A stretch of 64,000 nucleotides of DNA from Candidatus Poribacteria bacterium (GTDB lineage Bacteria; Poribacteria; WGA-4E; WGA-3G), in NCBI GenBank assembly GCA_003635255.1, contig PYJC01000170.1, positions 2,500 through 66,499 on the forward strand, read 5' to 3'. The first letter of the stretch is position 1. Every line of letters starts with the position of its first letter. Positions 11,086 through 29,215 of the stretch are shown here, piece after piece. The position numbers were made by a program, and so were the translations under genes. The notes under the pieces were generated by a model that was given only the letters and a program-made list of their open reading frames with translations, did not search any database and was not told the DNA's origin.

Positions 11086-11096
11086 ATGTTTTGTGT

Positions 11097-11129
11097 ATCG
11101 CTGGACACAACCTCGTGTCCAGCGATACC
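11097..11129 (+). terminator. Perfect 13-bp stem-loop immediately after the stop of the 7705 gene
   Basis: tatcgctggacac-aacctc-gtgtccagcgata. Confidence 0.5.
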
Positions 11130-11428
11130 GCGTTCAGTAATATCACCTATAATACCATTTTTTCTAACGCTTGCATAAAGCGCGTAACTTCTTAAGGACT
11201 CAAGTGTTTTTAATAGAAATGGTGTTATAACCCGTAAGGGCGATCTACAGATATAGACTTTAACTCCCAACCAGAAGAACCGTGTAGATGAAACACTCAC
11301 GTGTTAGTAAAATAAAATTAAGGTGTTAAGGTACGGTTTTCGTGCTTTATTTATACAACACTTTATGAGATGACTTGTAGTAACTTGCCAACACAATCGG
11401 CAAGTTAACCTAAGGAGGATCAGAACGA

Positions 11429-12427
11429 ATGATTCGTTTTAGTTTCGTTTTAATGCTAATTGCTTGTGTCGGTATGTCTACTGGCATCGCTTTTGCGCAA
11501 GATGATGCAAGTGGTGGAACCGTCCGAGGCAATATTGTTGACACAACCACAGCACAGAACCCGATTCCAGAGGTTCAGGTCAAGATCGTTGCTACAGGCG
11601 GGGAAGAATATGAGGCAATGACAGATGCCAATGGCGAATATGAAAAAACTGGTGTCCCCGCGGGCCGCTACCTTATCAGTATTTATAGAGAAGGATATGG
11701 CGACCGGCTCGGAAAACCTGTCACAGTCGTTAATGGCGGTGATCACTTCGTACCGCTCAAGATGACCAAAAAGGATAACATTGTTACCTTCTTCCAGAAG
11801 TTTGGATTCGTCTTCTGGCCACTCGCCCTCTGCTCTATCACGGCGTTAACCTTCATTATTGAAAGACTTTTCACCTTTGTCCGGAGTCGTTCCCGAATCG
11901 GAACTGAACAGTTCATCGCCAGTATCGCAGACTCATTGCGAAAAGAGAACATTATGGAAGCCGTCTCGACTTGTGAAGAAGCCGGCGGTCCACTTGCCAA
12001 TGTCCTTAAAGCCGGGTTACTGCGATACAGCCAAGCCCAGATCGAGGAACGCGATATTAGCAAAGAAGAAATTCAGGAAGCCATTGAGGAAGCAAGCCTG
12101 CTTGAAATCCCCGAACTGGAAAGAAATTTGCCGGTTCTCGGTACAGTCGCTGTTGTTTCGCCGCTGTTCGGTTTGCTCGGAACGGTTACAGGTATGATTA
12201 GTGCGTTTACCACAATCGCACTCGAAGGTACCGGTGACCCGCAGCAGCTCGCAGGTGGTATCTCACAGGCACTCCTCACAACTGCTGCTGGCTTGACAGT
12301 TGCTATCCCATGTTTGATTTTCTTCCAACTTTTTGATAGCTGGGTCAACAGACACATGGTTGAAATTTCACAGGTTTCTACCGAAATTGTCAATCAACTG
12401 ATTGTTGGTGAATCTGGCAACGCCTAA
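11429..12427 (+). CDS. exbB: ExbB/TolQ/MotA-family proton channel with an N-terminal signal peptide and a carboxypeptidase-regulatory-like (CarbopepD_reg) domain
   Basis: AGGAGG RBS; MotA_ExbB core ...VLGTVAVVSPLFGLLGTVTGMISAF...AGGISQALLTTAAGLTVAIP; the N-terminal roughly 110 aa beta-sandwich-like segment VRGNIVDTT...GRYLISIYREGYG. Confidence 0.8.
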   Translation: MIRFSFVLMLIACVGMSTGIAFAQDDASGGTVRGNIVDTTTAQNPIPEVQVKIVATGGEEYEAMTDANGEYEKTGVPAGRYLISIYREGYGDRLGKPVTVVNGGDHFVPLKMTKKDNIVTFFQKFGFVFWPLALCSITALTFIIERLFTFVRSRSRIGTEQFIASIADSLRKENIMEAVSTCEEAGGPLANVLKAGLLRYSQAQIEERDISKEEIQEAIEEASLLEIPELERNLPVLGTVAVVSPLFGLLGTVTGMISAFTTIALEGTGDPQQLAGGISQALLTTAAGLTVAIPCLIFFQLFDSWVNRHMVEISQVSTEIVNQLIVGESGNA

Positions 12428-12537
12428 CCTTGGAACAGAACGGCGGGTGATTTACACCCGCCTCTCCAATAGGTTTGTAGGGTGTTAGGTTCTCGAACCG
12501 CAGCCCTGGTCTCATTAACGAGAAAGGAGACTTTGAA

Positions 12538-12987
12538 ATGCAACAAGTCGGTGAAGCCAAATTGAGCCTGCTTGCAACCAAAATCAGGGAACGTAAGCCA
12601 CCAACGCTCAGTATGGCACCTATGATTGATTGTGTATTCCTGCTCCTGATTTTCTTCATGGTGTCAACAACCTTCTCGCCGATTCCCGGACTCCGGGTGC
12701 AGCTTCCCCCACCAGGGAAACCCTCGCCCGACAAACCGAAAGGGTTGACAGTCCGAATCGCGAACCCAGAACCCGGTGAGGATAGAGGCACTATGGTGTT
12801 GAACGATGCCGTTGTCCAGGTTGATGAAATGTTCAACCAGTTTATCAATGCACCGGACGAGGCAACGAACATGCTCATTATCCAATCCGAGCGGGAAGTA
12901 CTCCATGAACAGATCGTGCAGGTGATGGATATCGCAAAACAGGCAGGTATAGATAAAATCGGATTCGCTATCGTCGCAAGAGACTGA
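12538..12987 (+). CDS. exbD: ExbD/TolR biopolymer transport protein (paralog 1)
   Basis: LSMAPMIDCVFLLLIFFMVSTTF TM anchor; ExbD fold; about 150 aa. Confidence 0.85.
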   Translation: MQQVGEAKLSLLATKIRERKPPTLSMAPMIDCVFLLLIFFMVSTTFSPIPGLRVQLPPPGKPSPDKPKGLTVRIANPEPGEDRGTMVLNDAVVQVDEMFNQFINAPDEATNMLIIQSEREVLHEQIVQVMDIAKQAGIDKIGFAIVARD

Positions 12988-13039
12988 CAGTCCCACGCGA
13001 CAGCAGTAGTAATCTAATTTCTATAGAAGGAGAATTCTC

Positions 13040-13462
13040 ATGGCTTTAAACTTGGCTAAACGGCGGAAAAGAGAGGACGAGGACGACATTCCGATGGCAC
13101 CTATGATTGATTGTGTGTTCTTGTTGCTCATCTTCTTCATGGTATCTGCTGTCATGAAGGTTCCTCCGCCTTTTACTGTCACCTTACCCGATTCTGCAAC
13201 GAAGCACGAATTTACGCGAAAGAAATTCAACCTTTTCATTAACAGTGACGGACGTATTTCAATTGATGACCAAGAAATGCTAACACTGGAAGACATGGAA
13301 CTTTTCATCGCAGCACATGAAAACCAGATTACTACCTTGATTATCAAAGCAGACAAACGTGCCAAGCACGGGGATGTCATTGACGTGGTAGAACGAGCGA
13401 AAATGCGTTCCAGTAAAACGGAAGGGCTTGAAATCGCTTTCGCGGTGTCAGAAGAAGACTGA
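13040..13462 (+). CDS. exbD: ExbD/TolR biopolymer transport protein (paralog 2, divergent)
   Basis: PMAPMIDCVFLLLIFFMVSAV anchor; 140 aa. Confidence 0.85.
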   Translation: MALNLAKRRKREDEDDIPMAPMIDCVFLLLIFFMVSAVMKVPPPFTVTLPDSATKHEFTRKKFNLFINSDGRISIDDQEMLTLEDMELFIAAHENQITTLIIKADKRAKHGDVIDVVERAKMRSSKTEGLEIAFAVSEED

Positions 13463-14226: not shown

Positions 14227-17200
14227 CTAACGCTTCTTCCGCTCCCTCCGAGTTGCAGCTCTCCTTTTCAGTTGGACAGGCGCCGGAAGGGGCGGTGGCG
14301 GTGGTGTTACAACCTTCCAAAAGTGCGGCAGGAACGCTTCCCAATTGGTGAGAATATTTTCGGCATGCTGACTCCCAGTATACGCTGCGTGGTTTTGTAT
14401 AAGTGCCATCAGGCTCTTAACATCTGCTTCACTCTTCACCTTTTCTATTTTCACCCAATCCGGATTGAATTTTTGCTCAAACTGCTGTTTCTCGTCCAGA
14501 ACATAGGCGGTCCCACCTGTCATCCCGGCTCCAAAGTTTCTACCCGTTTCACCGATAACCACAACTGTACCTGCGGTCATGTACTCACAGCCATGATCAC
14601 CGACACCCTCAACGATAGCAGTCGCGCCGCTATTTCGGACGCAGAACCGTTCACCAACTCTACCCGCTGCATAGAGGGTCCCGCCCGTTGCTCCATATAA
14701 GACCGTATTTCCAATGATCGCATTCTCACAAGTTTCAAACGATGCAGTTGACGCGGGTTTGATAATAAGTTCCCCGCCTGCCATACCTTTGCCAACATAG
14801 TCATTGGCTTCCCCTGTCAGCACGAATTGTACGCCACTGATACAGAAAGCACCGAAACTCTGTCCGGCACTTCCCTCAAAATTGCACTGAATTGTTCTAT
14901 CAGGTAAACCCGTATCGCCATAACGTCTCGCAATTTCACCAGATAACTTCGCCCCAACTGTCCGGTGCGTGTTCCGAATAGAATAAAAAAGTTGGACCGA
15001 TGTTTTCTGCGAGATTGCTTCCGCTGCATCCTCCAGAATCTGATCATCCAGCGGAATATCCTCCCGGTCATTCCGTTCCTGCAGATGATAGCGAGGTTGC
15101 GTACCGGTTGGATCGGCAGGTGTCAGAATTTCGCTCAAATCAAGTGTTGCAGCTTTTGGATAATCTGCGAGGTCAATCGGTTGCAGCAATTCGGGACGAC
15201 CAATAATATCGTTCAAGCATCTGTGCCCGAGATTCGCGAGAATCGCTCGAACCTCATTTGCGACCCCCAACATGAAGTTAATAACCATCTCAGGAGTCCC
15301 AGGATACTTCGCACGGAGTGCCGGATCCTGCGTGGCGACCCCAACAGGGCAAGTGTTCAGGTGGCATTGGCGCGCCATCACGCATCCGGTTGCTACCATC
15401 GCTATTGTGCCAAAACCGTATTCTTCTGCCCCTAACATAGCAGCGATGACAATATCACGTCCTGAACGCATTCCACCGTCTGCCCGCAACACAACGCGAT
15501 CTCGTAATTCGTTCTCCACGAGCGCACGCTGCGTTTCTGAAAGTCCGAGTTCCCAAGGTGTTCCTGCGTTCTTAATAGAACTCAGCGGTGAGGCACCTGT
15601 ACCCCCCTCATGTCCACTCACTTGGATGACATCGGCGTAGCCCTTTGCCACACCTGATGCAATGGTTCCAACCAAAAATTCAGACACAAGTTTCACAGCA
15701 ACCTTTGCCTGGGGATTCGCCTGCTTCAAATCATAGATGAGCTGTGCCAAGTCCTCAATAGAATAAATGTCGTGGTGCGGTGGCGGTGAAATCAACGGAA
15801 CTCCCGGCACAGAATGTCGGATAGAGGCGATTTCAGCGGTTACTTTGTGCCCCGGAATCTGTCCGCCCTCCCCAGGCTTAGATCCCTGCGCCATTTTGAT
15901 TTCCAATTCCTTCGCCGAAATCAGGTATGTTGGTGTGACACCGAAACGTCCGGATGCCACCTGTTTGATAGCACTCGAAGCAAGATCACCGTTCGGCTGT
16001 TCCTTGAAGCGAGTAGGACTTTCACCACCTTCTCCACTACCGGATTTTGCACCAAGGCGGTTCATCGCGATTGCCAAAGTCTCGTGTGTCTCACGGCTTA
16101 GTGCACCGAAAGACATACTTCCGGTTGTAAAACGCCGAACGATATCCTCCGCGGGTTCTACCGCCTCAATTGGGATAGGCGTGCTTGGCTTGAATGCAAC
16201 CAAATCACGTAAACTCGAAGGTTCACCGCTCTCAACAGCGTCAACATATTCCTCATAATCTTCCGACTTACCTGCCTTGACGAACTTGTGGAGTGATTTA
16301 AACACTGTCGGATTAAAGGCATGGAATTCGCCGTTTCTACGGAATCGGAAGTAGCCTGCTTCTTCAAGCGACGTGTCGTCTTCACTCCCTGAAAACGCTT
16401 TTGTGTGGAAATGCAGCGTCTCAGCAGCGATTTCAGCAAATCCGATACCACTTAATCGTGAAGTGGTCCCTGTAAAACACTTATCAATAACTGTAGCGTT
16501 GATACCGAGTGCCTCAAAAATCTGGGCACCCCGGTAACTTGATACCGTCGAAATCCCCATCTTCGCCATAATCTTCAAAATACCTTTTTCGACGGTTGCC
16601 TTATAGGTTTCGATCGCTTCCGCCGCTGTGAGTCCTGCAAGTTCATCATCCTCAGCGAGCTGAACAATCGTTGAAAGCGCGAGATAAGGATTGACCGCCG
16701 CTGCCCCATAGCCGATCAGGACAGCAAAATGGTGTTCTTCCCTCGCATCCCCGGTTTCAGCGATAAGGCTTACCCGCATCCGCTTTCCTTCTCGAATCAG
16801 GTGGTGATGGACAGCACCCACAGCAAGTGCCATCGGAATCGGTGCAGAATCAGGACTGACATCTTTATCGCTCAGCACGAGAAGCGTGATGCCTGCATCA
16901 ACTGCCTCGGAGGCACGCTGACATAACGCCTCCAGTGCGGTCTCCAAACCTTGTTTACCGGCGGACACTGCGAAACAGACAGAAAGTGTCGCTAGCTGAA
17001 AATCTGGTATATTGAGATCCCGTAATACTTGTAAATCTGCATTTGTTAGGACAGGTGAGGGAATCCGAATGAGTCGAGCGTGCGCTTCAGTTTCTGTGAG
17101 CAAACTATGCCGTCGTCCGAGGTAAGTTGTGAGGGACATCACTAAACGTTCACGGATTGAGTCAATAGGCGGATTTGTTACCTGCGCGAAGCGTTGTTTG

Positions 17201-18729
17201 AAGTAAGTGTAGAGCGATCGCGGGTGCCGAGAAATCACAGCAGGCGGCGTATCATCACCCATTGAACCGACCGCTTCCTTTGCTTCCGTTACCATGGGCT
17301 TGATAAACCGTTCCACATCCTCAGTCATATAGCCGAACGCTTTCTGGTACATCGGCAGCTGCTCAGGAACAGCATCCGTTGTAGCAGAAGCAGCATCTTT
17401 TTCGGTCGGAAGTGTCACGACCCCTTTCTGTACCCATTCGGCGTATGGTTTCTGCGCAGCAACACGATGCTTAATTTCCGAATCCTTCAGTAACTTTCCT
17501 TGTGCTGTATCGACAGCGATCATCTGCCCCGGTCCCAAACGCCCTTTTTCCACAACACAACTGTCGTCAAGTTCAATGATACCGACCTCAGAACCCATGA
17601 CAACGGTTCCATCTTCCGTGACTTTGTAGCGCGCAGGTCTTAAGCCGTTTCTATCCAGACTCGCGCCAACGACAACACCATCCGTAAACGCGACCGCCGC
17701 CGGTCCGTCCCAAGGTTCGCTGACACATGAAAGATACTCGTAACAGGCTTTAAGCACATTCGGCATATCCGGAATCTGTTCATACGCCTCCGGGATCAGG
17801 CACATCATGGCATGTAGGATATCGCGGTCAGAATGTGTTAATAACTCTAACACGTTATCCAAACTCATCGAATCGCTTCCGTGTTCATTGATTATGGGAA
17901 CAAGTTTTCGGATATGTTCGTTCCAGAGAGGTGACTGCAAATCGGCTTCGCGTGCCCGCATCCAATTTCGATTGCCCATTAAGGTGTTGATTTCACCGTT
18001 GTGTGCAAGCGTATGGAAGGGTTGAGCGAGCATCCACGTCGAGGAGGTGTTCGTACTATAACGCTGGTGGAAAACAGCAAGTGCTGCCTCAAAATCTGAA
18101 TCTTTTAAGTCCAGATAAAATTGCGCCAGCTGCGGTGCTACCAGCAACCCTTTGTAGACGACCGTCCGATGTGAAAAGGAGGCAATATGGAATTCATCAA
18201 GCCCCGCCGCTGTGATACGATGTTCTAACGCTTTACATATTAAATACAAACATCTCTCAAAGGCATCGTCTGTTAGTTGCTCCGGTCGCCCGACCAATAC
18301 CTGTTGAATTTCCGGCATTGTCTCTAAAGCTTTGGTCCCAAGCGCAGAAAGATCCAGAGGCACCGAACGCCATCCGAGGAGCGGAACACCGTACTGTTGT
18401 AAAGTCTTCTCAACAAGTGCACGTCCCTGTGCCAATGCCTTTTCGTCGTGTCGCGGGAGAAAAATCATCCCGACACCCATGTCATTTACCGAATCAAGGT
18501 GGACTCCGAGTTTCCCAAGTTCTTTTTGAAATAATTTTTCTGGAATTTGTGTTAAGATACCTGCCCCATCGCCTGTTTTCGCGTCCGCCGCCACCGCGCC
18601 TCGATGCGTTAAATTCGTGACCGCTTGCGTCGCCATTTTGATAATCTCATGGCTCCGACTTCCGAGGCGGTTCGCGACAAAACCTACACCACAGGCATCT
18701 TTTTCATTCACATTGTTGTACATTTGCAA
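14227..18729 (-). CDS. gltB: Glutamate synthase large subunit (GOGAT alpha: GATase-2, central FMN and GXGXG domains)
   Basis: 1500 aa; N-terminal Cys1 amidotransferase CGVGFVANRLGSRSHEI; overall GltB architecture; unusual C-terminal Pro-rich/basic tail; no gltD small-subunit gene adjacent. Confidence 0.92.
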   Translation of the reverse strand: MQMYNNVNEKDACGVGFVANRLGSRSHEIIKMATQAVTNLTHRGAVAADAKTGDGAGILTQIPEKLFQKELGKLGVHLDSVNDMGVGMIFLPRHDEKALAQGRALVEKTLQQYGVPLLGWRSVPLDLSALGTKALETMPEIQQVLVGRPEQLTDDAFERCLYLICKALEHRITAAGLDEFHIASFSHRTVVYKGLLVAPQLAQFYLDLKDSDFEAALAVFHQRYSTNTSSTWMLAQPFHTLAHNGEINTLMGNRNWMRAREADLQSPLWNEHIRKLVPIINEHGSDSMSLDNVLELLTHSDRDILHAMMCLIPEAYEQIPDMPNVLKACYEYLSCVSEPWDGPAAVAFTDGVVVGASLDRNGLRPARYKVTEDGTVVMGSEVGIIELDDSCVVEKGRLGPGQMIAVDTAQGKLLKDSEIKHRVAAQKPYAEWVQKGVVTLPTEKDAASATTDAVPEQLPMYQKAFGYMTEDVERFIKPMVTEAKEAVGSMGDDTPPAVISRHPRSLYTYFKQRFAQVTNPPIDSIRERLVMSLTTYLGRRHSLLTETEAHARLIRIPSPVLTNADLQVLRDLNIPDFQLATLSVCFAVSAGKQGLETALEALCQRASEAVDAGITLLVLSDKDVSPDSAPIPMALAVGAVHHHLIREGKRMRVSLIAETGDAREEHHFAVLIGYGAAAVNPYLALSTIVQLAEDDELAGLTAAEAIETYKATVEKGILKIMAKMGISTVSSYRGAQIFEALGINATVIDKCFTGTTSRLSGIGFAEIAAETLHFHTKAFSGSEDDTSLEEAGYFRFRRNGEFHAFNPTVFKSLHKFVKAGKSEDYEEYVDAVESGEPSSLRDLVAFKPSTPIPIEAVEPAEDIVRRFTTGSMSFGALSRETHETLAIAMNRLGAKSGSGEGGESPTRFKEQPNGDLASSAIKQVASGRFGVTPTYLISAKELEIKMAQGSKPGEGGQIPGHKVTAEIASIRHSVPGVPLISPPPHHDIYSIEDLAQLIYDLKQANPQAKVAVKLVSEFLVGTIASGVAKGYADVIQVSGHEGGTGASPLSSIKNAGTPWELGLSETQRALVENELRDRVVLRADGGMRSGRDIVIAAMLGAEEYGFGTIAMVATGCVMARQCHLNTCPVGVATQDPALRAKYPGTPEMVINFMLGVANEVRAILANLGHRCLNDIIGRPELLQPIDLADYPKAATLDLSEILTPADPTGTQPRYHLQERNDREDIPLDDQILEDAAEAISQKTSVQLFYSIRNTHRTVGAKLSGEIARRYGDTGLPDRTIQCNFEGSAGQSFGAFCISGVQFVLTGEANDYVGKGMAGGELIIKPASTASFETCENAIIGNTVLYGATGGTLYAAGRVGERFCVRNSGATAIVEGVGDHGCEYMTAGTVVVIGETGRNFGAGMTGGTAYVLDEKQQFEQKFNPDWVKIEKVKSEADVKSLMALIQNHAAYTGSQHAENILTNWEAFLPHFWKVVTPPPPPLPAPVQLKRRAATRRERKKR

Positions 18730-19104
18730 ACTATTTCTCCATACATTCTTCTATATTTCTTGTCCATTGGCGTTTTAAATCAAGTTGTTTATGCTTCGCC
18801 TTTTTATATTTAATCCGTGGGACGAGGTTCACGTGCCTTAACCCCACACCTTTTTATTAAGGTTACAAACAGATCGGAAAACGGACTTCGCTTTCAGGGC
18901 TGGGTCGGACGCTGACGACTCGTATCCTGCCGAAAATAGCGCGCCCCAAGGCAAGAGAGAGCCTTTGGAATCAACGGTGATTCGCGACCGGCTTGGTGGG
19001 CTTACGTGCTGCGGTCCGGTTCTTAATTTTTTACAACCAAAACCGCCTGTTAGTTTTAATTATACCTTAATTTAAGCCGAAAGTCAAAAAAAATCCCTCT
19101 CCTC

Positions 19105-20715
19105 TCAATAGCCAACCGCACATCCATCCCGTCTCGGATCCGAACCCGCGACAAGCGTGTCAAAAGCAGGATTGATAAAAATCGCTTGCCCGCCGCCAAA
19201 AAAAGTATCTCCCGGTATGATATGATGCCCCTTCTGTGCTAACGTGGCTTGCACATTCATTGGAATGCCTGCCTCCAGCATAATCCGAGAATCGTCCATC
19301 ACCCGAAACCGAGGCGCATCCAAGGCATTTTGAACATCCATCTTGAAGTCAATGAGATTGCACACAAACTGTAAATGTCCTTGTGTCTGCATCTGCCCGC
19401 CCATGACACCGAAGGTAACCAACGGCACCCCATTTTGGGCAATCATACCCGGGATAATCGTATGTAACGTCCGTTTATGCGGGGCGATACAATTCGCATG
19501 GTTCGGATCCAGCGAAAAACCTGCTCCCCGATTTTGCAACATGATCCCCGTCCCACCAGCAACTAAACCCGATCCAAAACCGGCAAAGAGACTGTTAATA
19601 AAAGAGACAACGTTTCGATCACTATCAACGGTACAAAGGTATACCGTATCACTTCCCATTGACGGAACACCCGCACTCGGTTCCATATTCGCCCGTTCTG
19701 GTGAGATACGTGAACGCTGACTTTCCGTATAGTCGTCAGAGAGCAGTCCCGCTACCGGTACATCTACAAATGCTGGATCTGTTACGTATTTGTAAAGATC
19801 CGCGAATCCCAATTTCATCGCCTCAATTGCATAGTGTAAATGCTCAGGACTGTTATGCTCCATTGCTCCGAGGTCGAATCCCTCAACAATATTGAGTGCG
19901 AGTAGTGCGGCAATACCTTGTCCATTCGGCGGAATTTCATAGACATCATAACCACGGTAATTCGTAGCAATCGGTTCAACCCAATCGGATTTATGGTCAG
20001 CGAAGTCTTGTCGGGTGAACAGTCCGCCATTCTCATCGGAAAATTGAACGATCTTATCAGCGATTTCGCCGTGATAAAAGGCATCACGTCCGCCTTCAGC
20101 AATCAGCCGTAACGTCCGTGCGAAGTTCGGTTGGTGAAAAATCTCACCCGGTTTTGGTGCCTTTCCGTTTCTGAGATAGGTCTTTGCCGTATCAGGATGC
20201 TGCGCTAACATCGCAGCACTGCCTTGCCACGCGAGGCTAATTTGTGGGCTAACCGGAAATCCGTTCTCCGCATAATCAATCGCGGGCTGAAGCACCTCTG
20301 CCAATGACATCGTCCCACATTCATCAAGGAGAGTCGCCCATCCGTCAATTGTACCCGGTACCGTAACAGGATACATACTCCCAAAAGCCGGAATGCTGCG
20401 TAATCCCTGCTTCGTAAAGAATTCCAGTTCTGCGGCGTAAGGTGCCCTACCACTCGCATTTAAGCCACGGATGACACCCTCTTTAGGCTGGTAAACCAGC
20501 ATGAACGCATCGCCACCGATGCCCGTTGACATCGGCTCGACGACATTGAGTATTGCAGCAGTCGCAACCGCCGCATCAACAGCATTTCCACCGTCCTTTA
20601 GAATCTGTAATCCACCCTGCGCAGCAAGCGGTTGACTCGTTGCAACTGCGCCATGTTGACAGATGACAGCAGAGCGTCCAGGTCCAAATTGGTTGGGGTA
20701 GTACCGATCAAACAT
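19105..20715 (-). CDS. ggt: Gamma-glutamyltranspeptidase (Ntn-hydrolase GGT family)
   Basis: 536 aa; GGNAVDAAVATAAILNVVEP and GGDAFMLVY motifs; a catalytic-Thr region; no signal peptide. Confidence 0.85.
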   Translation of the reverse strand: MFDRYYPNQFGPGRSAVICQHGAVATSQPLAAQGGLQILKDGGNAVDAAVATAAILNVVEPMSTGIGGDAFMLVYQPKEGVIRGLNASGRAPYAAELEFFTKQGLRSIPAFGSMYPVTVPGTIDGWATLLDECGTMSLAEVLQPAIDYAENGFPVSPQISLAWQGSAAMLAQHPDTAKTYLRNGKAPKPGEIFHQPNFARTLRLIAEGGRDAFYHGEIADKIVQFSDENGGLFTRQDFADHKSDWVEPIATNYRGYDVYEIPPNGQGIAALLALNIVEGFDLGAMEHNSPEHLHYAIEAMKLGFADLYKYVTDPAFVDVPVAGLLSDDYTESQRSRISPERANMEPSAGVPSMGSDTVYLCTVDSDRNVVSFINSLFAGFGSGLVAGGTGIMLQNRGAGFSLDPNHANCIAPHKRTLHTIIPGMIAQNGVPLVTFGVMGGQMQTQGHLQFVCNLIDFKMDVQNALDAPRFRVMDDSRIMLEAGIPMNVQATLAQKGHHIIPGDTFFGGGQAIFINPAFDTLVAGSDPRRDGCAVGY

Positions 20716-21080
20716 CCACTTTCTCCTACTTACAGACTGCTATCACTATAGCACGCCTCGCCCTTTTTGTCAAATTTAGCATTAATGCAGAGTGTGTAAG
20801 GTTTTGACGCGCGATTATGAAAAGTGCCCCTTGTAGCACAGACTGTATGAAGTTTAAGAAAATATTTCGGTAATTCTATATTTTCCCCAGGTCCGGTAGG
20901 TTCGGTTTCCTAACCGAACCGGACTTCACCAAGAAATTACCGAATTTAAAAATTGATCTTCATTTAGTCTGTGCATAGTATAATCCAAGCTGCAAAATCC
21001 GTGTCATTCCTGAAAACCTGTTATTCAAACAACAATCAACAAAATATTTACACATCCACGGATGCATCACTGATTTTTAT

Positions 21081-21109
21081 TTGAAAATTAGAGAAAGGTC
21101 AGATATAAT
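21081..21109 (+). promoter_or_regulatory. Consensus sigma70 promoter TTGAAA-17 nt-TATAAT upstream of the parA-like gene
   Basis: ttgaaa at 21081-86, 17-nt spacer, tataat at 21104-09. Confidence 0.55.
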
Positions 21110-21213
21110 AGACTAAGAGTAGCCTCCCATTTATTCGGGATGGCACTTCTAAAAGATGAGTGTTCACATCTCGTGTAACAATGATAGGTGGATGACGAAT
21201 TAGAGGACATAAC

Positions 21214-22338
21214 ATGGCCAAACAGATTGCACTTTTCAACCACAAAGGCGGCGTGGGCAAGACAACAATGACCTTCAATCTCGGCTGGATGTTGGCAAAG
21301 AAAGGAAAGAAAGTCATCATCGTTGATTGTGATCCGCAGTGTAACCTCACCGGCATGGTGCTTGGCTTCAAGGATGCTAAACGTTTTGAATCAATGTACA
21401 AGTCAGTTGGTGTAACGAATATTCGCGAGGGTCTCGCGCCTGCTTTTGAATCGCGTCCCGCCCCCATCAAACCAGTGAACTGCGAATCCATCCGCGGACG
21501 TATGGAAATGCCTTCGCTACTGCACTTGTTACCAGGACATATTGGACTCGCCGAATACGAGGTGCCCCTGGGAGTCGCACAAGCACTGTCGGGTTCATTG
21601 GTAACGCTCCAGAATTTGCCCGGGTCCTTGCATAACCTTTTTTCTAAAACTGCTGACAAATACAACGCTGATTTTATTTTAGTAGATATGAGCCCAAGTT
21701 TGGGACCGATTAACCAAAACTTGCTTATGACGAGCGACTACTTCATTGTTCCGATGTTTCCGGACTACTTCTCAGCAATGGCGACGGAGAGTCTTGCCTC
21801 AATTTTACCGAAATGGTCGGGGTGGGCAAAGCAAGCCAAAAAGTCGCCGCTTCTACAAGAGGCTATTTATCCTTTTCCTGATAAGGATCCCAAATTTCTT
21901 GGAACTATAGTTCAGAATTATAGAGTTAGGGACGGAGAACCTGCTAAAGCCTTCGGAGAGTGGATTGAGCAAATAAAAATAGGCGTTGAGGAAAAACTCA
22001 TACCAGTCTTACGCGAAAACGATATGCTGCTTCCAGACGAATCTTATATAAAGACAAGGGCACTTGAATCGCATCAGCATCGATTTAATTTTATTAACCC
22101 AGATTTTGTAAATGACCAACTCATAAGTCAACCTCTTCTCCAAGTATCAGACTTCAATAGTCTGATTGCTCTCTCACAGAAACATAAAGTCCCAGTTTTT
22201 GATTTGACAGACGATCAGATTGGTCAAGCAGGTGTGATACTTGAAAGCACTAAGAGATCCATGGAACGCTTTCGGGACTTATTTTCTGATGGTGCGGAGC
22301 AGATAATTACACTTACCGAGAATGCTGAGTCTTATTGA
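21214..22338 (+). CDS. ParA/MinD-family P-loop ATPase with a roughly 120-aa C-terminal extension
   Basis: Deviant Walker A KGGVGKTT; the IVDCDPQ motif; 374 aa; it sits in a defense-gene context rather than a partition context. Confidence 0.8.
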   Translation: MAKQIALFNHKGGVGKTTMTFNLGWMLAKKGKKVIIVDCDPQCNLTGMVLGFKDAKRFESMYKSVGVTNIREGLAPAFESRPAPIKPVNCESIRGRMEMPSLLHLLPGHIGLAEYEVPLGVAQALSGSLVTLQNLPGSLHNLFSKTADKYNADFILVDMSPSLGPINQNLLMTSDYFIVPMFPDYFSAMATESLASILPKWSGWAKQAKKSPLLQEAIYPFPDKDPKFLGTIVQNYRVRDGEPAKAFGEWIEQIKIGVEEKLIPVLRENDMLLPDESYIKTRALESHQHRFNFINPDFVNDQLISQPLLQVSDFNSLIALSQKHKVPVFDLTDDQIGQAGVILESTKRSMERFRDLFSDGAEQIITLTENAESY

Positions 22339-23385: not shown

Positions 23386-24537
23386 TCACTCCTCACTTTG
23401 AGACTTCTCTTTTGAACGCTCAGGATCTATTGCATACTCATAAAATCCATAAAGAATAGTGTTACGATAATATCTAAAGAACAAATGGTAAAGATGAACA
23501 AATATAGGACATAAACTCGCACTAACGCAATAGCACACAAATAAGTTGTTCAAATCCAGAGTATCCCCAATAGGAATTCTTGTTGGTATGCCTCCAATAA
23601 TTAGATTGCTGTAACTGGCACTATAGTCAATTTTGAATTCAAGACAAAATCCTGCTATTAAACCAAGCACTACTATAACTATTCCATAAGAAAGTCCTAA
23701 ACGAATTTCTTTCTTCGTCGTATTTTCATTGTTTTTTTTACAGTCTTCTCGATTTTCATTTTTACTTTGTGTCCAAAGTTTTTTTATACGACTCCAAATA
23801 TTTTTTTCAAGCCAAAGAAAAAACTTTCCTACAATAATCAAGCAAGAGCAAAGAAACCCAACAGCAAAAATAGGAACTATGACTACTATCCACATGTTTT
23901 GAAATAATTTCTCAGAAATAACTATTCTCAGAGAAAAGCCAACAGCTGCTAAACAAAAAATGACTGCTAACAACTTGGCAGAATTGTATAGAGACAGGAG
24001 CCGAGAAGCTCTTGGATAGAGATATGGACTGTGCTTCATGAAACTTGTACGACAGAGATGGAAAATTTCCGTATACTTTACATCTGTCTTAACGTCTGCA
24101 GCTTCGCATTGTATCTTTGATACTTTAATGTCAAAGACTTTTCTAATCTGGTATCTCAATTTATGCACAAATTGGTCCGAATACGGATAATAATCTTCAG
24201 GATACGATCTACATTCAAAGTCGAATAACTCCTTTTCAAACACCCCGTGATCTGAATAATATCTTTTGAAAGGATCCCATATAGTTGAAAAAACTCTAAA
24301 CATCCAATTAATAAACCCATGACTCGCGAGACCAACAACATAACAAGCAACCACATAGAAAATTCCTTGGGTTATCGTAGGACGCAGATACTTTGGCAAT
24401 TCGTCATCGGTACTCTTGAGTTGATCTATTAAATCCGTCGGTAATGTCGGATTTATCAGAATAGTTCCGACAATTATTATCATCAAACCGGGTAGACTAT
24501 AACCCAAAAAATCATAAACTCCAAATGAAAATTTCAT
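23386..24537 (-). CDS. Polytopic membrane protein of unknown function, markedly AT-rich
   Basis: GGAGA RBS before the ATG at 24537; at least 8 predicted TM helices; codon usage and GC clearly lower than the flanks; 20 nt downstream of the methyltransferase gene. Confidence 0.6.
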   Translation of the reverse strand: MKFSFGVYDFLGYSLPGLMIIIVGTILINPTLPTDLIDQLKSTDDELPKYLRPTITQGIFYVVACYVVGLASHGFINWMFRVFSTIWDPFKRYYSDHGVFEKELFDFECRSYPEDYYPYSDQFVHKLRYQIRKVFDIKVSKIQCEAADVKTDVKYTEIFHLCRTSFMKHSPYLYPRASRLLSLYNSAKLLAVIFCLAAVGFSLRIVISEKLFQNMWIVVIVPIFAVGFLCSCLIIVGKFFLWLEKNIWSRIKKLWTQSKNENREDCKKNNENTTKKEIRLGLSYGIVIVVLGLIAGFCLEFKIDYSASYSNLIIGGIPTRIPIGDTLDLNNLFVCYCVSASLCPIFVHLYHLFFRYYRNTILYGFYEYAIDPERSKEKSQSEE

Positions 24538-24572
24538 CAAATTTGTCTCCAATAAACGAATTCAACCGTCTC

Positions 24573-27500
24573 CTACACCTCCATGCCCGCATCTTGATAT
24601 GTCTGCTTAATCAATTCAACTTCCGCATCGGTTAAGCCATACAACTGATACACCAATTCGTCTATCTTCTGCTCAATATCACGCACGCCATCGCTTTCCG
24701 GGGCTGCTAATATCTGTTCAACAAGACGCGACAATTCTGCTTTCTGTGCTGCAGTCCGATCCGCTATTGGAACCTTCTCCATGTATTGAGCGAAAAACTG
24801 CAATCTACCACCCTCCCATGGATCATTGAGGTTATAAAATTTGTGTCGCGCATACCAATCAAAGAGTCGACTATTCAATACAGCAAGTAATGAAAGATCA
24901 CGAGTAGGTATGAAGTATACGTTGTTTAACCCAAATGTCCCCGCTGTATCGTAGCAACCATAGAGAGCCTTTGCTGTCTGTGGATAGATAACTTTCGGTT
25001 TTTTAAATTCGGCATAATAGACACACGAACGAAGTTCCCAATAAAACATACCTTGGTCGCCCCGGGCAATCAATTGATCTCGATAACCCTTCAGATGATT
25101 ATAGACCGCTGGATAGGTTTCGGCGAAAATTTGCTCCGCTTCTGAGGTGTTTCTGGCATCCGACCAGGGCCACTCCCTGTTAGCACTGCTTGCAATAACT
25201 ATCAGGTACTCATTTGTCGAATTTGCTTTCCATCTGCGAAGATTTCGCCCTCTCAATACCGGTTTTATAAGTTCACCGCTCCTTGCGTTCTCAGCAATCA
25301 ACTTCTGGCACACAGGCTTATCAATGATAAATGCATCGTTACATCCAGTCTTCACACCCATGTAGAAACCTCCATCTACATATTCCTCCAATGGTGTTCC
25401 GATCTGTTGTAATCTTGCAAGCAGCCTAAGCACCTCTGACGATGTTAATGCCCATCCATCTGGGGACAAGTCGCGAGAGTCCATGGAAAAAGACTTTTCT
25501 CGAAACGCTTCTGAAAGACGAGGAATATCGGCTTTATCACGAAAGGTTGCAGCGAAAAAAGCCTTGTCCGCTGGCGGTGCACTTTCAGCAAGTAGGATAC
25601 AAGTATCCACGTGCGCCTTAAAAACCGGAACGTTCCCAAAATCAAGTAGTCTGTGAAGTTTCACTCTGTTAGTAAAGAAAGATCGGAGTTTCTTGCCGTA
25701 TGCTACCCGTAGGAAATTATTAGAAGAGATGTAACTGAGAACCCCACCTGTCCGAAGCAATTCAGCCCCGCGTTTGTAGAAGTAGACATATAGGTCTGCA
25801 GTACCTGTAAAAACTTCAGGAAATAATTGTTCTAAAACCGGTTTAATTGGAATGATGTTTTCCTGTCGTACATAAGGTGGATTGCCGACAATAATATCAA
25901 ATCCACCCTCTTGGAATACCTCTGAAAACTCAACCTGCCAGACAAACACATCGGCGTTCGCTTGCCATCCCTGAAGGCTTTCCTTGAGTTCAGCGATCAC
26001 CTCCCGGAGTCTCTGTTTCTCTGGGTCAGTATGGGTAACCAAATATTCCGCTTGATGTTCCTGAATCTGTTGAATCAAGTCAGCCTCAAGACCAATCTGT
26101 TCTGGTGCGGGACCAGTCAAACTATCTCCTGCTGCGACTTTGTAGTCCAAATTGGGCAGTGGTTCTGGTGTGTCACCTTCGTAATCGACGGCAAGACTCA
26201 ACCACAAACGGAGCATGGCAATATTAACAGCAAACTCATCCTTGTCCACGCCGTAGAGGTTTTTCTGAATGATGTCAAGTTTACGTTGATAGATTATTGG
26301 AGAATCAATCTGATTGCTTTGAAAAAGTGCTTCTCGCAAGCGGAGCAACTCACCCATCATGCCGAGTAGATAGGCACCACTGCCACAGGCTGGATCACAT
26401 ATTCGCAATGTCTGCAGGACTTGTAACACTCTCTCTGGATTCCGAATTTTGGTTGCATCACCATCATCAATAAATGCTTGAAGGATTTCTGGTGTCTCAT
26501 CGGTTTTATTTTGGAGGCAGATTTTTAGGCTCTCTCGGCACATGAAGGAAACAACTGGGCGCGGTGTGTAGTAGCTGCCGGTGTCGTGTCTACCGGTAAC
26601 GAGTTCCTCAAACACTTTTCCGAGCATCTCTGGATCGACTGCTACCTCAATATCAAGTGGGGTTGATTCGGTCACAGTGAAATTGTATCGTTCAAAGAGT
26701 TCCAAGATCTCGGCAAATTTGTCGTTAGGAATATGGACAGCATTCTGCACATCGTCCTTCTGCATTTCAAAGAGTCCACCGTTGAGAAACGGCACTCCTC
26801 CCCGACGTTCAACGGCTGCAGATGATTCCTCTGGTTGGTCCGCAGCATTACCGAGTCCATGAAAGAATGCCCAATAGAGCCGGTCGTTGAGAAAATTTTC
26901 ATCGGTTCCTGATTCTGTTGCATCGAAGAGGACACGGAGGTAATCGCGATTACCGTTGTAAGTGAGCCATCCTTTTTTCTCAATAAAGCGCAGGAACATC
27001 AGTCGGTTAAAGAGGCGTTGTGTATAGAGTCGGCGCGCTTCTGTCTCATCTTCTGGAATGCCTTTGACTGCTTTTTCAACCTGTGCAAAGACACGTTGGT
27101 AATCAGCAAAGAATTTATCGGTGACCGCCTCTACATCAAATGCTTCTTGCCATGCTTTTAGCCATGCCTTGTCATCTGAAAAGCCATCGCTTGGAAAGGC
27201 GAGTGCGGGTAGGTTATATTCACAGAGCGTACGGATGTGGGTATCGCCCTGTTCCCAAGAGAAGATCGAAAGCACAGCACGTCGCCAGTTTTCGTTGGAC
27301 GCGAAGTGGGCAAAAGCGAAACGTTGAAAGTCGGTTGTGGTACAGATAAAGAGAAGGTGGTCGTGTTTCCAAGTGGGGAGACTTGAATTTCGATCGCGTC
27401 TTTCAACAAGTCCGCGGAGCACACGACGCAGTGCAGTTCGATAGATGTCCTCGCTGTTGAATTGAAGGAAAAAGATACCCCACGGCTGCGTATCCTCAAA

Positions 27501-27728
27501 AATTCCAAGTGTGGGTTGACTGGGAGGGAATGGTGGTAGCTGCCAGTAGTCACCAATCCGATCTTGCGTCAATTCATCAAGATCAAGCTCTTCAGCAGAT
27601 AAAGAATAGGCTACGTCTTCAAATTCAACGTCTTCGGGGATGTGCCAACCGAATTTCTCGCGCAGAAAGTCTAAGAGGGTGTCAAAGTCATGGATGTTGT
27701 GAATATCGTTTGGTGTTATGTGGGGCAT
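24573..27728 (-). CDS. Gamma-class N6-adenine DNA methyltransferase (Eco57I/PglX/type IIG-like) with a roughly 330-aa N-terminal domain and a C-terminal putative target-recognition region
   Basis: Motif I ICDPACGSGAYLLG precedes motif IV IVGNPPYV; 1051 aa. Confidence 0.85.
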   Translation of the reverse strand: MPHITPNDIHNIHDFDTLLDFLREKFGWHIPEDVEFEDVAYSLSAEELDLDELTQDRIGDYWQLPPFPPSQPTLGIFEDTQPWGIFFLQFNSEDIYRTALRRVLRGLVERRDRNSSLPTWKHDHLLFICTTTDFQRFAFAHFASNENWRRAVLSIFSWEQGDTHIRTLCEYNLPALAFPSDGFSDDKAWLKAWQEAFDVEAVTDKFFADYQRVFAQVEKAVKGIPEDETEARRLYTQRLFNRLMFLRFIEKKGWLTYNGNRDYLRVLFDATESGTDENFLNDRLYWAFFHGLGNAADQPEESSAAVERRGGVPFLNGGLFEMQKDDVQNAVHIPNDKFAEILELFERYNFTVTESTPLDIEVAVDPEMLGKVFEELVTGRHDTGSYYTPRPVVSFMCRESLKICLQNKTDETPEILQAFIDDGDATKIRNPERVLQVLQTLRICDPACGSGAYLLGMMGELLRLREALFQSNQIDSPIIYQRKLDIIQKNLYGVDKDEFAVNIAMLRLWLSLAVDYEGDTPEPLPNLDYKVAAGDSLTGPAPEQIGLEADLIQQIQEHQAEYLVTHTDPEKQRLREVIAELKESLQGWQANADVFVWQVEFSEVFQEGGFDIIVGNPPYVRQENIIPIKPVLEQLFPEVFTGTADLYVYFYKRGAELLRTGGVLSYISSNNFLRVAYGKKLRSFFTNRVKLHRLLDFGNVPVFKAHVDTCILLAESAPPADKAFFAATFRDKADIPRLSEAFREKSFSMDSRDLSPDGWALTSSEVLRLLARLQQIGTPLEEYVDGGFYMGVKTGCNDAFIIDKPVCQKLIAENARSGELIKPVLRGRNLRRWKANSTNEYLIVIASSANREWPWSDARNTSEAEQIFAETYPAVYNHLKGYRDQLIARGDQGMFYWELRSCVYYAEFKKPKVIYPQTAKALYGCYDTAGTFGLNNVYFIPTRDLSLLAVLNSRLFDWYARHKFYNLNDPWEGGRLQFFAQYMEKVPIADRTAAQKAELSRLVEQILAAPESDGVRDIEQKIDELVYQLYGLTDAEVELIKQTYQDAGMEV

Positions 27729-27743: not shown

Positions 27744-28148
27744 TCAGGTGGAATGTGATTCAGAGACTGGCTCTGTGCTTGTCTCTAACGGCGCGTTTGA
27801 TGGCGTTAAGTGTTCACTTGCGAGTTCGCTGCTATTCCCCTCTGCTAATAGCGGTTCGATTGAGAGCTGCCATCCAAGTGCCTTGAGAACGGCATTCAGG
27901 GTACCAAGATGCAGTGGGTCTCCGCTGTATAGAAATTCTGAGAGGACTTTCGGGGTGATGCCGGCTTGCTTGGCAATTTTGGAAGTCCCGCCTTGGGCTT
28001 CTACAACATTCCGGATCCCCTTTAGAAAAAAGGGTGTGTCTCCATCAACAAGATATTCTTCCAATGAAACCTGGAGGTAACTCATCGCTTCCTCTCGGTT
28101 AGCGAGTTTTTCAATTAGGAATTCGTGCCATGTTGTTAGTTTTTCCAT
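27744..28148 (-). CDS. higA: HigA-type antitoxin (addiction-module antidote protein with HTH, TIGR02684-like)
   Basis: ...FLKGIRNVVEAQGGTSKIAKQAGITPKVLSEFL HTH; overlaps the higB stop by about 13 nt. Confidence 0.7.
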   Translation of the reverse strand: MEKLTTWHEFLIEKLANREEAMSYLQVSLEEYLVDGDTPFFLKGIRNVVEAQGGTSKIAKQAGITPKVLSEFLYSGDPLHLGTLNAVLKALGWQLSIEPLLAEGNSSELASEHLTPSNAPLETSTEPVSESHST

Positions 28149-28483
28149 CGTTGTGTCTCCTTGTATTGCGACCAATATTCCTTTGCTCGCTGAATGTCCC
28201 TTGCCTGCGACGACTTGTCGCCTGCACAGAGGAGAAGAACAATTGTATTTTCGACTTCAGCAAAATAAATACGATAGCCTGCACCGAAGTGGGAACGTAA
28301 CTCAAATACACCTTCCCCGACAGATTTAGAATCTCCGAAATTGCCATCTTCAAGTCTGTCAAGCCGTTTTTGAATTCTGCTTCGCACGCTTCGATCTTGA
28401 ATTGTGTTATACCACTCGATAAAAGGCATTCTCCCGTTGGGTGTTCGATAAAATTTTAGTTCTCTTGGCTGTGTATAGCGCAT
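28136..28483 (-). CDS. higB: HigB/RelE-like toxin (addiction-module killer protein, TIGR02683-like)
   Basis: About 115 aa; ...MPFIEWYNTIQDRSVRSRIQKRLDRLEDGNFGDSKSVGEGVFELR...YRIYF is typical of this family. Confidence 0.7.
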   Translation of the reverse strand: MRYTQPRELKFYRTPNGRMPFIEWYNTIQDRSVRSRIQKRLDRLEDGNFGDSKSVGEGVFELRSHFGAGYRIYFAEVENTIVLLLCAGDKSSQARDIQRAKEYWSQYKETQRWKN

Positions 28484-28611
28484 TGATAATATCTTGTTCT
28501 TATCCAAGCGATATATTTCTAAAGTATATCACAAGTTCGGCAGAAAATCAAAGGGTGATGTGAGAAAAGTCGGGATTATAAACCCCTCCCACAAGTATTA
28601 GATAGATGGTT

Positions 28612-29181
28612 TCAGGCATCCAACTTGAAATGGACGAGCGAGATATATTCATCAACAATAGGTCGGCTTTTTCTCCCGCTGAAGCATGCAAAGCCGATGC
28701 TTTGGAAGTTGGTGGTTGTGCAGATAAAGAGAAGTTTATCGTGCTGCCAAAAAGGGAGTGAAACACTACGCCCGTGCCTGTCAACAAGCCCTCGCAGAAC
28801 TTGACGCAAGAGTGTCCTGCAGGCATCAAGTTCCACGTTATCATCAAACTGGATAAAGAAGATACCCCACTGTTGTTGGTTCTCCAGTGAATCTAAATCT
28901 AAAAGTTGCAGCTGCTGATAGGTCTGGGTGTTAGCATTGGATTTACGCGTCACCGCAGACAAATCAAATTCAACATCGTAAAGCTGCAGTTGCCGACAAC
29001 TAACAATTCGGGCTTGAGTGTCAGGATTAAGTTCAAGGTCACTTGCAGACCAGTCATAGGTAATTTCTTCAAACTTCAGACCTTCGTCCGGAATGGGCCA
29101 ATTGAGGCTATCCCGCAAAAAGTCAACCAAGGATTCAAAGTTGTGAACCTCCTGAATTTTGGGTGAAAATTCGTTGCGCAT
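28612..29181 (-). CDS. Stand-alone paralog of the methyltransferase N-terminal domain (190 aa)
   Basis: AGGAG RBS; alignable to residues about 10-190 of the 1051-aa methyltransferase (shared blocks include ...VDFLR..., WGIFF(L/I)QF, LLRQVLRGLV.R, HD.LLFICTTT.FQ); located 35 nt after the helicase stop. Confidence 0.65.
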   Translation of the reverse strand: MRNEFSPKIQEVHNFESLVDFLRDSLNWPIPDEGLKFEEITYDWSASDLELNPDTQARIVSCRQLQLYDVEFDLSAVTRKSNANTQTYQQLQLLDLDSLENQQQWGIFFIQFDDNVELDACRTLLRQVLRGLVDRHGRSVSLPFWQHDKLLFICTTTNFQSIGFACFSGRKSRPIVDEYISLVHFKLDA

Positions 29182-29215
29182 TTCGTTGCTATAGTCTCCT
29201 TGTCGGAAATTGATT

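Follow-up and report, generated by a model that had tools for sequence, protein, structure and literature searches.

The described systems that come closest to the locus reported here are the Type-2 BREX-related/MANTIS systems (formerly Gao_RL), which combine an N-terminal HKD/PLD nuclease and a Swi2/Snf2 (RapA-like) helicase in one effector with an N6-adenine methyltransferase that marks self DNA and with a small protein, DUF3780/MtsB, that is non-enzymatic and has no known fold, and which accumulate accessory genes in the helicase–methyltransferase region (Rakesh and Krishnan, NAR 2026, PMC12839542; Shaw et al., 10.64898/2026.09.23.753747). Comparable ingredients are found on the minus strand of a 64,000-nucleotide (nt) stretch of Candidatus Poribacteria contig PYJC01000170.1 (assembly GCA_003635255.1), hereafter the window, where a helicase-nuclease gene is followed by a small open reading frame (ORF), a toxin, an antitoxin and a methyltransferase gene (Table 1). 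The small ORF, the subject of this report, is a stand-alone paralog of the N-terminal domain (N-domain) of that methyltransferase, and is a real, selectively maintained gene and no decaying remnant. The locus differs from MANTIS in that no DUF499/MtsA AAA+ ATPase is present in the window locus and its neighbours or in the gene tables of L001-L007 (L001 and the like are labels of the homologous loci compared). Furthermore, the small ORF has no Pfam DUF3780 match (52 family members, E ≤ 1), being instead related to the methyltransferase's own N-domain, and MtsC belongs to group alpha (10.64898/2026.09.23.753747), whereas the window methyltransferase is of the gamma class and MmeI/PglX-like. An effector of the MANTIS/Type-2 BREX-related kind without the AAA+ ATPase offers a simpler setting in which to study how unmethylated targets are handed over from a methyltransferase to a motor-nuclease.

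Other known systems resemble the locus in part, and DISARM, BREX, Type III and Type ISP each differ from it in defining components. As in the Type IIG/IIL enzymes (MmeI, BpuSI, DrdV), a helical domain, a gamma-class methyltransferase and a target-recognition domain are joined in one chain, which matches the PADLOC model REase_MTase_IIG at 8e-110 and, by Foldseek, MmeI (5hr4) at 6e-22, with BpuSI and DrdV matched too. However, the window N-domain has neither a PD-(D/E)XK signature nor Foldseek similarity to the nuclease domains of these enzymes; here the predicted nuclease is provided in trans on the motor protein, and a free copy of the N-domain is present in addition. In Type III and Type ISP systems a site-specific, probably monomeric/asymmetric methyltransferase with a target-recognition domain is likewise coupled to an SF2 motor-nuclease, and in Type ISP enzymes motor and methyltransferase are connected through a dedicated coupler domain. 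Their motor is Rad25/Res-like and their nuclease of the PD-ExK type, whereas the window locus has a Swi2/Snf2 motor with an N-terminal PLD nuclease, a gamma-class methyltransferase, activities on separate polypeptides, and a putative coupler that is duplicated as a free protein. The resemblance to BREX PglX/BrxX extends over the whole-chain structure (BrxX 9ewz, E = 5e-23 over 1017 columns), but the genes for PglZ, BrxC, BrxA, BrxB and BrxL are absent, PglX models give 64-76 bits where the cut-offs are 400-900, and the N-terminus of BrxX is a helical bundle (PMC12839542), unlike the alpha/beta N-domain seen here. DISARM class 1 differs as well, since DrmA and DrmB (DUF1998) are absent and the DrmD/DrmMI matches are partial and fall far short of the curated cut-off, with 128 bits against 610. 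In the literature, no paper was found that describes the two-gene system, the N-domain or its free paralog.

In a reading of the DNA made from its letters alone (hereafter the sequence-only reading), the small ORF had been taken for a 190-residue duplicate of the first roughly 190 residues of the 1051-aa methyltransferase. This relationship was borne out: the encoded product of 189 amino acids (aa) aligns to the methyltransferase with 43% identity over 164 columns (BLASTP, E = 1e-34; residues 9-172 against residues 9-147), and the shared blocks WGIFF.QF, L.R.VLRGLV.R and HD.LLFICTTT.FQ are all present. When both proteins were searched against the whole window by tblastn, each retrieved its paralog alone (E = 1e-28 and 4e-33), and all further matches had E > 0.03. 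The divergence at the DNA level was confirmed too; only patches of ~70% identity are left, 124 nt and 76 nt in length, so that the duplication must be old. The C-terminal tail of the small ORF, IVDEYISLVHFKLDA, aligns to residues ~166-182 of the methyltransferase, whose helical domain begins at residue 186 in the AlphaFold2 (AF2) model. Because the tail matches the residues just before the helical domain, the small ORF represents the whole N-domain and ends at the domain boundary.

The two copies differ in a variable loop (residues ~66-105), in a 3-residue insertion and in an internal deletion of ~18 residues. The loop is hypervariable among small ORFs, with up to 55 extra residues in forms of 243 aa, and is predicted with low confidence, while the remainder of the AF2 model is confident and shows an alpha/beta sheet fold (predicted local distance difference test, pLDDT, 76; predicted template modelling score, pTM, 0.74). 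Across both paralog families 40 positions are conserved and identical, and just 9 are conserved but different. The small protein is acidic, with an isoelectric point (pI) of 4.8 and a net charge of -10. It falls into no known family in Pfam (searched with the ORF and 52 family members, E ≤ 1), NCBIfam or PADLOC, and no relatives were found among PDB sequences by profile search or among PDB and viral BFVD structures by Foldseek. A DNA-binding regulator or a restriction-modification C protein was also considered and rejected, as the protein has no helix-turn-helix in Pfam, is acidic and has an alpha/beta fold.

Stand-alone homologs of the small ORF form 106 clusters of 145-250 aa (mostly 188-189 aa), with identities from 88% down to 42%; the window protein is 88% identical to P0001 and 93% identical to that of L008. 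Five diverse members were all found in the same arrangement, with a helicase of ~1010 aa, the small ORF 30-500 nt later and a methyltransferase of ~1050 aa, all on the same strand. A species-representative scan, with one genome per species, returned 41 loci, of which 39 bear a Poribacteria annotation and two are labelled uncultured bacterium. The small ORF is present in 19 of these; 14 have helicase and methyltransferase without it, and 8 are orphan or degraded methyltransferase copies. A conserved small ORF at orthologous positions, which had been suggested as a check, is thereby found in 19 of the 33 helicase-linked loci. All genome loci found to carry it are from Candidatus Poribacteria, and in the loci found it is the first gene after the HKD(PLD)+SNF2 helicase-nuclease, with the methyltransferase downstream. 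L133 has such a small ORF behind a helicase with just 63% identity to that of the window.

In a joint neighbour-joining tree the small ORFs fall into one group, apart from all methyltransferase N-domains, including those of loci without the ORF, and the window copy, with its 3-aa VEL insertion and RPIVD.Y...FKLD tail, lies inside this group. As the small ORFs also have the 3-residue insertion and the C-terminal tail in common, the duplication happened once. A recent in-situ duplication was rejected on account of the ~70% DNA patches, the saturation of synonymous sites and the single origin.

The ratio of non-synonymous to synonymous divergence (dN/dS, omega) of the small ORF is 0.06-0.31 (Nei-Gojobori, unsaturated ortholog pairs) and is 0.12 between the window and its closest relative, L008, with 15.3 non-synonymous against 28.7 synonymous differences. 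The values of its partners are in a similar range (helicase 0.09-0.15, methyltransferase N-domain 0.07-0.27), and its frame is intact in all carrier loci. The small ORF evolves ~1.7-1.9 times faster than its neighbours, the mean pairwise distance being 0.39 compared with 0.20 and 0.23. In several close genome pairs its dS is far below the value for the neighbouring helicase (0.29 vs 0.73, 0.12 vs 0.71 and 0.13 vs 0.78), which indicates that the loci are mosaic and that the small-ORF segment has been exchanged between them. A pseudogene is contradicted by an omega well under 1, by the intact frames, by the end at the domain boundary and by the presence of the ORF in more than half of the helicase-linked loci. 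The suggestion that the ORF could be a diverged remnant of a second methyltransferase gene therefore does not hold for the present-day gene, which belongs to a conserved family of single origin under purifying selection; it survives as the most plausible account of where the gene came from.

Orthologous loci that lack the small ORF, or a pseudogene-like substitution pattern, had been named as signs of a non-functional remnant. Such loci do exist, 14 of the 33 helicase-linked ones and close relatives of the window among them, but the substitution pattern is not pseudogene-like, so that absence here means that the gene is dispensable, not that it is without function. In the helicase tree, loci that lack the ORF fall inside carrier clades at least three times (L035 and L038 beside the window and L008, L033 beside L009, and L036 beside L002), and there is one basal clade without it. 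The comparison of the window with L038 delimits the segment concerned: the helicases are 88% and the methyltransferase N-domains 93% identical, and DNA homology runs up to the helicase stop (29216) and starts again from 28551, with 664 nt in the window against 11 nt in L038. The same 664-nt cassette is present in L008, and the 11 nt take its place in both L037 and L038, close relatives of the window. A promoter-like element (28551-28523) lies outside the cassette, in the segment common with L038 that holds the toxin-antitoxin pair and the methyltransferase. In L008 the small ORF is kept and the toxin gene is absent. The small ORF is thus a dispensable, accessory gene that has been lost repeatedly, and Poribacteria loci that are close relatives and differ cleanly in this one gene provide a natural experiment on restriction, methylation and self-toxicity.

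Degraded loci were observed as well. L010 (9566-11854) shows the chromosomal neighbourhood of L001 with the helicase deleted and just the first 266 nt of the methyltransferase left; small ORF and toxin-antitoxin pair are both intact, and the ORF segment has 90% DNA identity to L001. L012, with an internally deleted helicase, and L024, with no methyltransferase, resemble this case.

The system encoded here, a defence system of sponge-symbiont bacteria, is ATP-dependent and restriction-modification-like, and its core is a widespread two-gene unit of an HKD/PLD-Swi2/Snf2 helicase-nuclease and an MmeI/PglX-like gamma-class N6-adenine methyltransferase. The methyltransferase is composed of the N-domain, a helical domain, a gamma-class Eco57I/MmeI-type methyltransferase domain and a TaqI_C-type target-recognition domain (Pfam matches to Eco57I, MmeI_Mtase and TaqI_C). 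A Poribacteria protein at NCBI is 100% identical to it. Within its NPPY motif, N616, P617 and P618 are invariant and Y619 is nearly so. Its AF2 model (pLDDT 86) matches CamA and M.BseCI at 1e-31, BrxX at 5e-23 and MmeI at 6e-22 in Foldseek. The first ~185 residues are covered by no Pfam, NCBIfam or PADLOC model, the PADLOC Type IIG models matching just from about residue 190 on, and no relatives of the N-domain were detectable in the PDB or the viral structure library. A profile of the N-domain, searched against 1.84 billion representative proteins, found 643 clusters (50% identity), 310 of them with E < 1e-10, mostly at residues 1-150 of proteins of 900-1500 aa with Eco57I-type methyltransferases; some of these have DUF7008 and PglX-model matches, and one has a Type ISP target-recognition domain and GmrSD. 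The work thereby defines an unannotated domain of ~180 aa that is a marker of a widespread two-gene system of helicase-nuclease and methyltransferase.

The N-domain is acidic (pI ~4.6-4.8) and occupies the position of the nuclease domain in Type IIG enzymes, and the predicted order of its helices and strands, alpha-beta-beta-beta-alpha-beta, resembles the PD-(D/E)XK fold. A degenerate PD-(D/E)XK nuclease is nevertheless not supported: conserved acidic/lysine catalytic residues are absent, and Foldseek was blank at E < 0.1 with a library that holds MmeI, BpuSI and DrdV.

The helicase matches the PADLOC model C3a139 'HKD+Snf2' at 1e-71, and its closest solved relative is RapA; the model was drawn from a list of genes beside type III CRISPR loci (PMC6546367). 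The predicted effector of restriction is this helicase-nuclease. A metagenome scan, seeded with a 10-sequence alignment of diverse N-domains, yielded 80 loci. A complete PLD + SNF2 helicase lies directly upstream and on the same strand in 46 of the 49 loci with at least 3.3 kb of upstream sequence (94%), and the helicase C-terminus is seen in 61 of the 69 with at least 600 nt. The same pairing of helicase and N-domain methyltransferase holds in the window and in all intact Poribacteria loci. L049 is a full-length ortholog of the two-gene unit, with 42% identity end to end in the helicase and 54% over the first 400 residues of the methyltransferase. In P0142 the methyltransferase core is a different one (Type_ISP_C + GmrSD), yet the same helicase family is found upstream and matches to its C-terminus. 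Since the N-domain stays constant with this helicase, it is inferred to be a coupling module, a reading based on association.

A related arrangement was observed in L052 (1276-8087), where a single protein of 1555 aa contains the N-domain, N6 methyltransferase and Type ISP-type target-recognition domains and, at its C-terminus, a GmrSD nuclease domain. A helicase gene of the same family comes before it, and a gene for an AAA_15/AAA_21 ATPase after it. In L052 the helicase-coupled module has been elaborated in another way.

Throughout the family, the helicase–methyltransferase junction is a hotspot for inserted cargo. It holds HigB/HigA-like and other toxin-antitoxin pairs, IS605 TnpB, YhcG/DUF1016 nucleases (four loci), Fic, VapBC, MazF/MazEF, an IS200-like gene, and a pair of a 112-aa and a zinc-ribbon protein. 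Such cargo occurs in the window (27744-28551), in L009, L010, L035, L037, L038, L006, L018, L048 and L027, and in the metagenome loci L062, L063, L065, L073, L080, L089, L090 and L125. In 10 of 10 cargo-bearing loci that have the small ORF it lies 3' of the ORF, never between the ORF and the helicase. The same HigBA-like pair was also seen outside the junction in other loci, either past the methyltransferase or ahead of the helicase.

Most plausibly, the small ORF is derived from the 5' part of a methyltransferase gene that was displaced. An ancestral replacement of the methyltransferase, or an insertion of cargo, may have stranded the former 5' end on the helicase operon; the fragment left behind would by chance have been a complete domain, or would have been trimmed to one, and would then have been kept by selection. 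A fragment of this kind is seen in L089, an unrelated locus, where an N-domain cut mid-domain, with 37% identity to the neighbouring methyltransferase, lies beside YhcG cargo. The case suggests that the debris of methyltransferase replacement at a cargo hotspot can become a maintained accessory protein.

The sequence-only reading had also raised the idea of a retained adaptor, decoy or assembly factor linking the helicase-nuclease to the N-domain. The retention is now established, and the adaptor role, itself deduced, fits all findings. On balance we lean towards the small ORF being an accessory docking domain in free form, which would tune how the methyltransferase is linked to the nuclease, as a modulator and not as an essential subunit. 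The N-domain of the methyltransferase would couple the enzyme to the helicase-nuclease, and the small ORF would be co-transcribed with the helicase, as suggested by the spacer of 34 nt, the ribosome-binding site (RBS), the hairpin that follows the ORF and the separate promoter-like site thereafter. Given that the 40 conserved positions are kept and that the ORF would be on the helicase transcript, the free domain should bind the partner of the fused domain. The favoured partner is a surface on the helicase-nuclease, which is probably a dimer, as the single-HKD nucleases MtsD, SauUSI and BfiI function as dimers (10.64898/2026.09.23.753747). The free domain might cap one site of the helicase dimer, or compete with the methyltransferase, and so set a threshold for recruitment of the nuclease. 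The effect would most likely be a damping or gating of restriction that protects against self-cleavage, for which the loss of the gene without loss of the system speaks. A more specific form of the idea, tentative and clearly the less probable of the two, is that the free N-domain binds the helicase-nuclease at the methyltransferase's own site, either as a restriction-alleviation/anti-autoimmunity factor or as a decoy for phage inhibitors of the interface. If true, such a competitor or decoy would be a new form of self-regulation in restriction-like immunity, a principle undescribed for restriction-modification-like systems, and would make the N-domain the module that recruits the motor in a widespread two-gene helicase-methyltransferase defence family.

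Several observations weigh against a modulating docking domain, or at least do not single it out. No residue of the helicase or of the methyltransferase N-domain separates loci with the ORF from those without (a scan for co-adaptation returned one weak helicase position, P612), so that a signal of co-adaptation is missing. As the N-domain is in addition equally conserved in both sets of loci, the small protein is an add-on and not a replacement for the fused domain, and subfunctionalisation was rejected on the same ground. The distance correlations are similar and do not discriminate the partner, with r = 0.65 for small ORF and helicase and 0.47 for small ORF and methyltransferase N-domain; helicase and N-domain are correlated at r = 0.66. 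Without a relative in the PDB, BFVD or Pfam, no biochemistry can be transferred from known families, and the direction of the effect, damping or enabling, is a guess. Finally, the small ORF is intact in L010, L012 and L024, where helicase or methyltransferase is deleted or degraded, which could reflect a role independent of these partners, or simply recent decay.

The free domain might instead act on the methyltransferase, by homotypic pairing of N-domains in a heterodimer that controls methylation or oligomerisation. Paralogs often keep homotypic interfaces, and the Type IIL/IIG enzymes MmeI and DrdV cut only once the N-terminal domains of different molecules associate; the distance between small ORF and methyltransferase is moreover just 10-14 nt in many loci. 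There is also a precedent in MANTIS, in which methylation needs a small non-enzymatic dimer, MtsB (10.64898/2026.09.23.753747). We nonetheless consider an action on the methyltransferase unlikely, because the ORF always goes with the helicase and because 0.6-4.2 kb of cargo with a promoter of its own often lie between ORF and methyltransferase, because the N-domain shows neither a discriminating residue nor a difference in conservation between the two sets of loci, and because the strict co-occurrence of N-domain and helicase fits a heterotypic contact better. A decoy or guard, in which the free N-domain absorbs or senses phage anti-restriction proteins aimed at the N-domain or the coupling interface, would account for a rate of evolution above that of both partners, for the hypervariable loop at residues ~66-105, for the patchy presence and for the low dS relative to the helicase, which suggests allele exchange. 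With an overall omega well under 1, no structural match to viral proteins in BFVD and no known phage partner, this is improbable. The blank BFVD search likewise gave no support to a phage-encoded mimic.

The survival of the ORF in L010, where the toxin-antitoxin pair is kept, and in L012 and L024 may also be read as a function outside the restriction system, the gene being co-opted elsewhere or hitch-hiking with the addictive toxin-antitoxin module. Hitch-hiking is at odds with the carriers that have no such pair (L003, L007, L013-L015, L017-L020 and L025), and among all genome matches the small ORF was never found apart from the helicase locus or its remains, which makes either form of this explanation very improbable. 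A non-functional remnant, that is, a decaying 5' end of a displaced methyltransferase gene which is open by chance, is largely refuted and the least probable of these explanations. Real remnants do occur at the junction, namely the L089 fragment and the methyltransferase 5' stumps in L010 and L024, and both the loci without the ORF and its faster evolution would be expected of a remnant. Against this, the frame is intact in all carriers despite divergence to 42% identity, omega is low, there are 106 clusters of conserved length, the 40 conserved residues are kept, and the ORF ends at the domain boundary and has its own RBS. The docking domain that modulates the helicase–methyltransferase link accordingly remains the reading towards which we lean.

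The features of the locus are listed in Table 1.

Table 1. Coordinates of features at the defence locus, given as positions in the window.
Feature	Coordinates	Strand	Evidence
HKD/PLD nuclease + Swi2/Snf2 helicase, 1016 aa	29216..32266	-	Pfam PLDc_2, SNF2-rel_dom, Helicase_C
Small ORF 'SM', 189 aa + stop, stand-alone paralog of the methyltransferase N-terminal alpha/beta domain	28612..29181	-	
AGGAG RBS of the small ORF, 14 nt 5' of the ATG	29196..29200	-	direct sequence reading
664-nt cassette: RBS, small ORF and terminator-like hairpin	28552..29215	-	blastn against L038/L037
Terminator-like hairpin followed by T-rich tail, 26 nt past the small-ORF stop	28572..28586	-	consensus scan
Promoter-like site TTGATT-17-TATACT with TG, 5' of toxin-antitoxin pair and methyltransferase	28523..28551	-	consensus scan
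RelE/ParE-type toxin (upstrm_HI1419 / Gp49 family), inserted cargo	28136..28507	-	NCBIfam TIGR02683, 1e-35; Pfam Gp49
Antitoxin (dnstrm_HI1420 family), partner of the toxin	27744..28175	-	Pfam PF21716, 1e-7
N6-adenine DNA methyltransferase, Eco57I/MmeI-type, with TaqI_C-type target-recognition domain, 1051 aa	24573..27728	-	Pfam
Methyltransferase N-terminal alpha/beta domain, residues 1 to ~180, paralog of the small ORF	27189..27728	-	alignments, profile search
388-aa ORF, 20 nt past the methyltransferase stop	23386..24552	-	no match in Pfam, PADLOC or NCBIfam

All five genes from the helicase to the methyltransferase are read from the minus strand, in the order helicase, small ORF, toxin, antitoxin, methyltransferase. 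The small ORF had been placed 35 nt after the helicase stop codon; its position there is correct and the spacer measures 34 nt, from the stop TGA (29218-29216) to the ATG (29181-29179). The AGGAG RBS that had been assigned to it was found as described, 14 nt before the ATG. A 264-aa version with a TTG start is the same frame prolonged into the 3' end of the helicase gene, and the ATG is favoured because the N-termini of the orthologs are conserved there. The gap of 883 nt between the small ORF and the methyltransferase holds the toxin-antitoxin pair, of which the antitoxin scores 22.9 bits with NCBIfam TIGR02684, below the 53.7-bit cutoff. Terminator-like sites are no more numerous than expected by chance in the consensus scan, and it is the position of the hairpin alone that is suggestive. 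The promoter-like element 5' of the cargo (TTGAyTTT ... GATATACT) is conserved in the window, L035, L037 and L038. L009 and L033 have homologs of the 388-aa ORF (35-36% identity) at this position, and different genes are found there in other loci, so that it may be a variable accessory gene of the locus.

Further copies of the methyltransferase were observed in some genomes. One Poribacteria metagenome-assembled genome (isolate 1eb63393, OZ219750/OZ219753) has eight copies of an N-domain methyltransferase gene (L039-L046, each at about 9957-13211 of its locus), with 88-92% DNA identity that is confined to the gene itself. Each copy is split at the identical point into an ORF of 292 aa (N-domain and start of the helical region) and one of ~775 aa, and has a copy-specific variable patch near 12551-12762; a helicase lies upstream in L041 only. 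The pattern resembles that of a naturally split methyltransferase family in multiple copies, whose specificities may vary. In L023 (11490-20492) and L085 (7078-7329) a second N-domain methyltransferase gene is located downstream of the first, in tandem or nearby, which is consistent with turnover of methyltransferase alleles at these loci.

The flanks of the locus in the window (14227-22338) are housekeeping genes, namely those for the glutamate synthase large subunit, a gamma-glutamyltranspeptidase and a ParA-like ATPase, and no integrase or evident boundary of an island was seen beside the defence locus. Just 5' of the helicase in L001 there is an IS1595 transposase.

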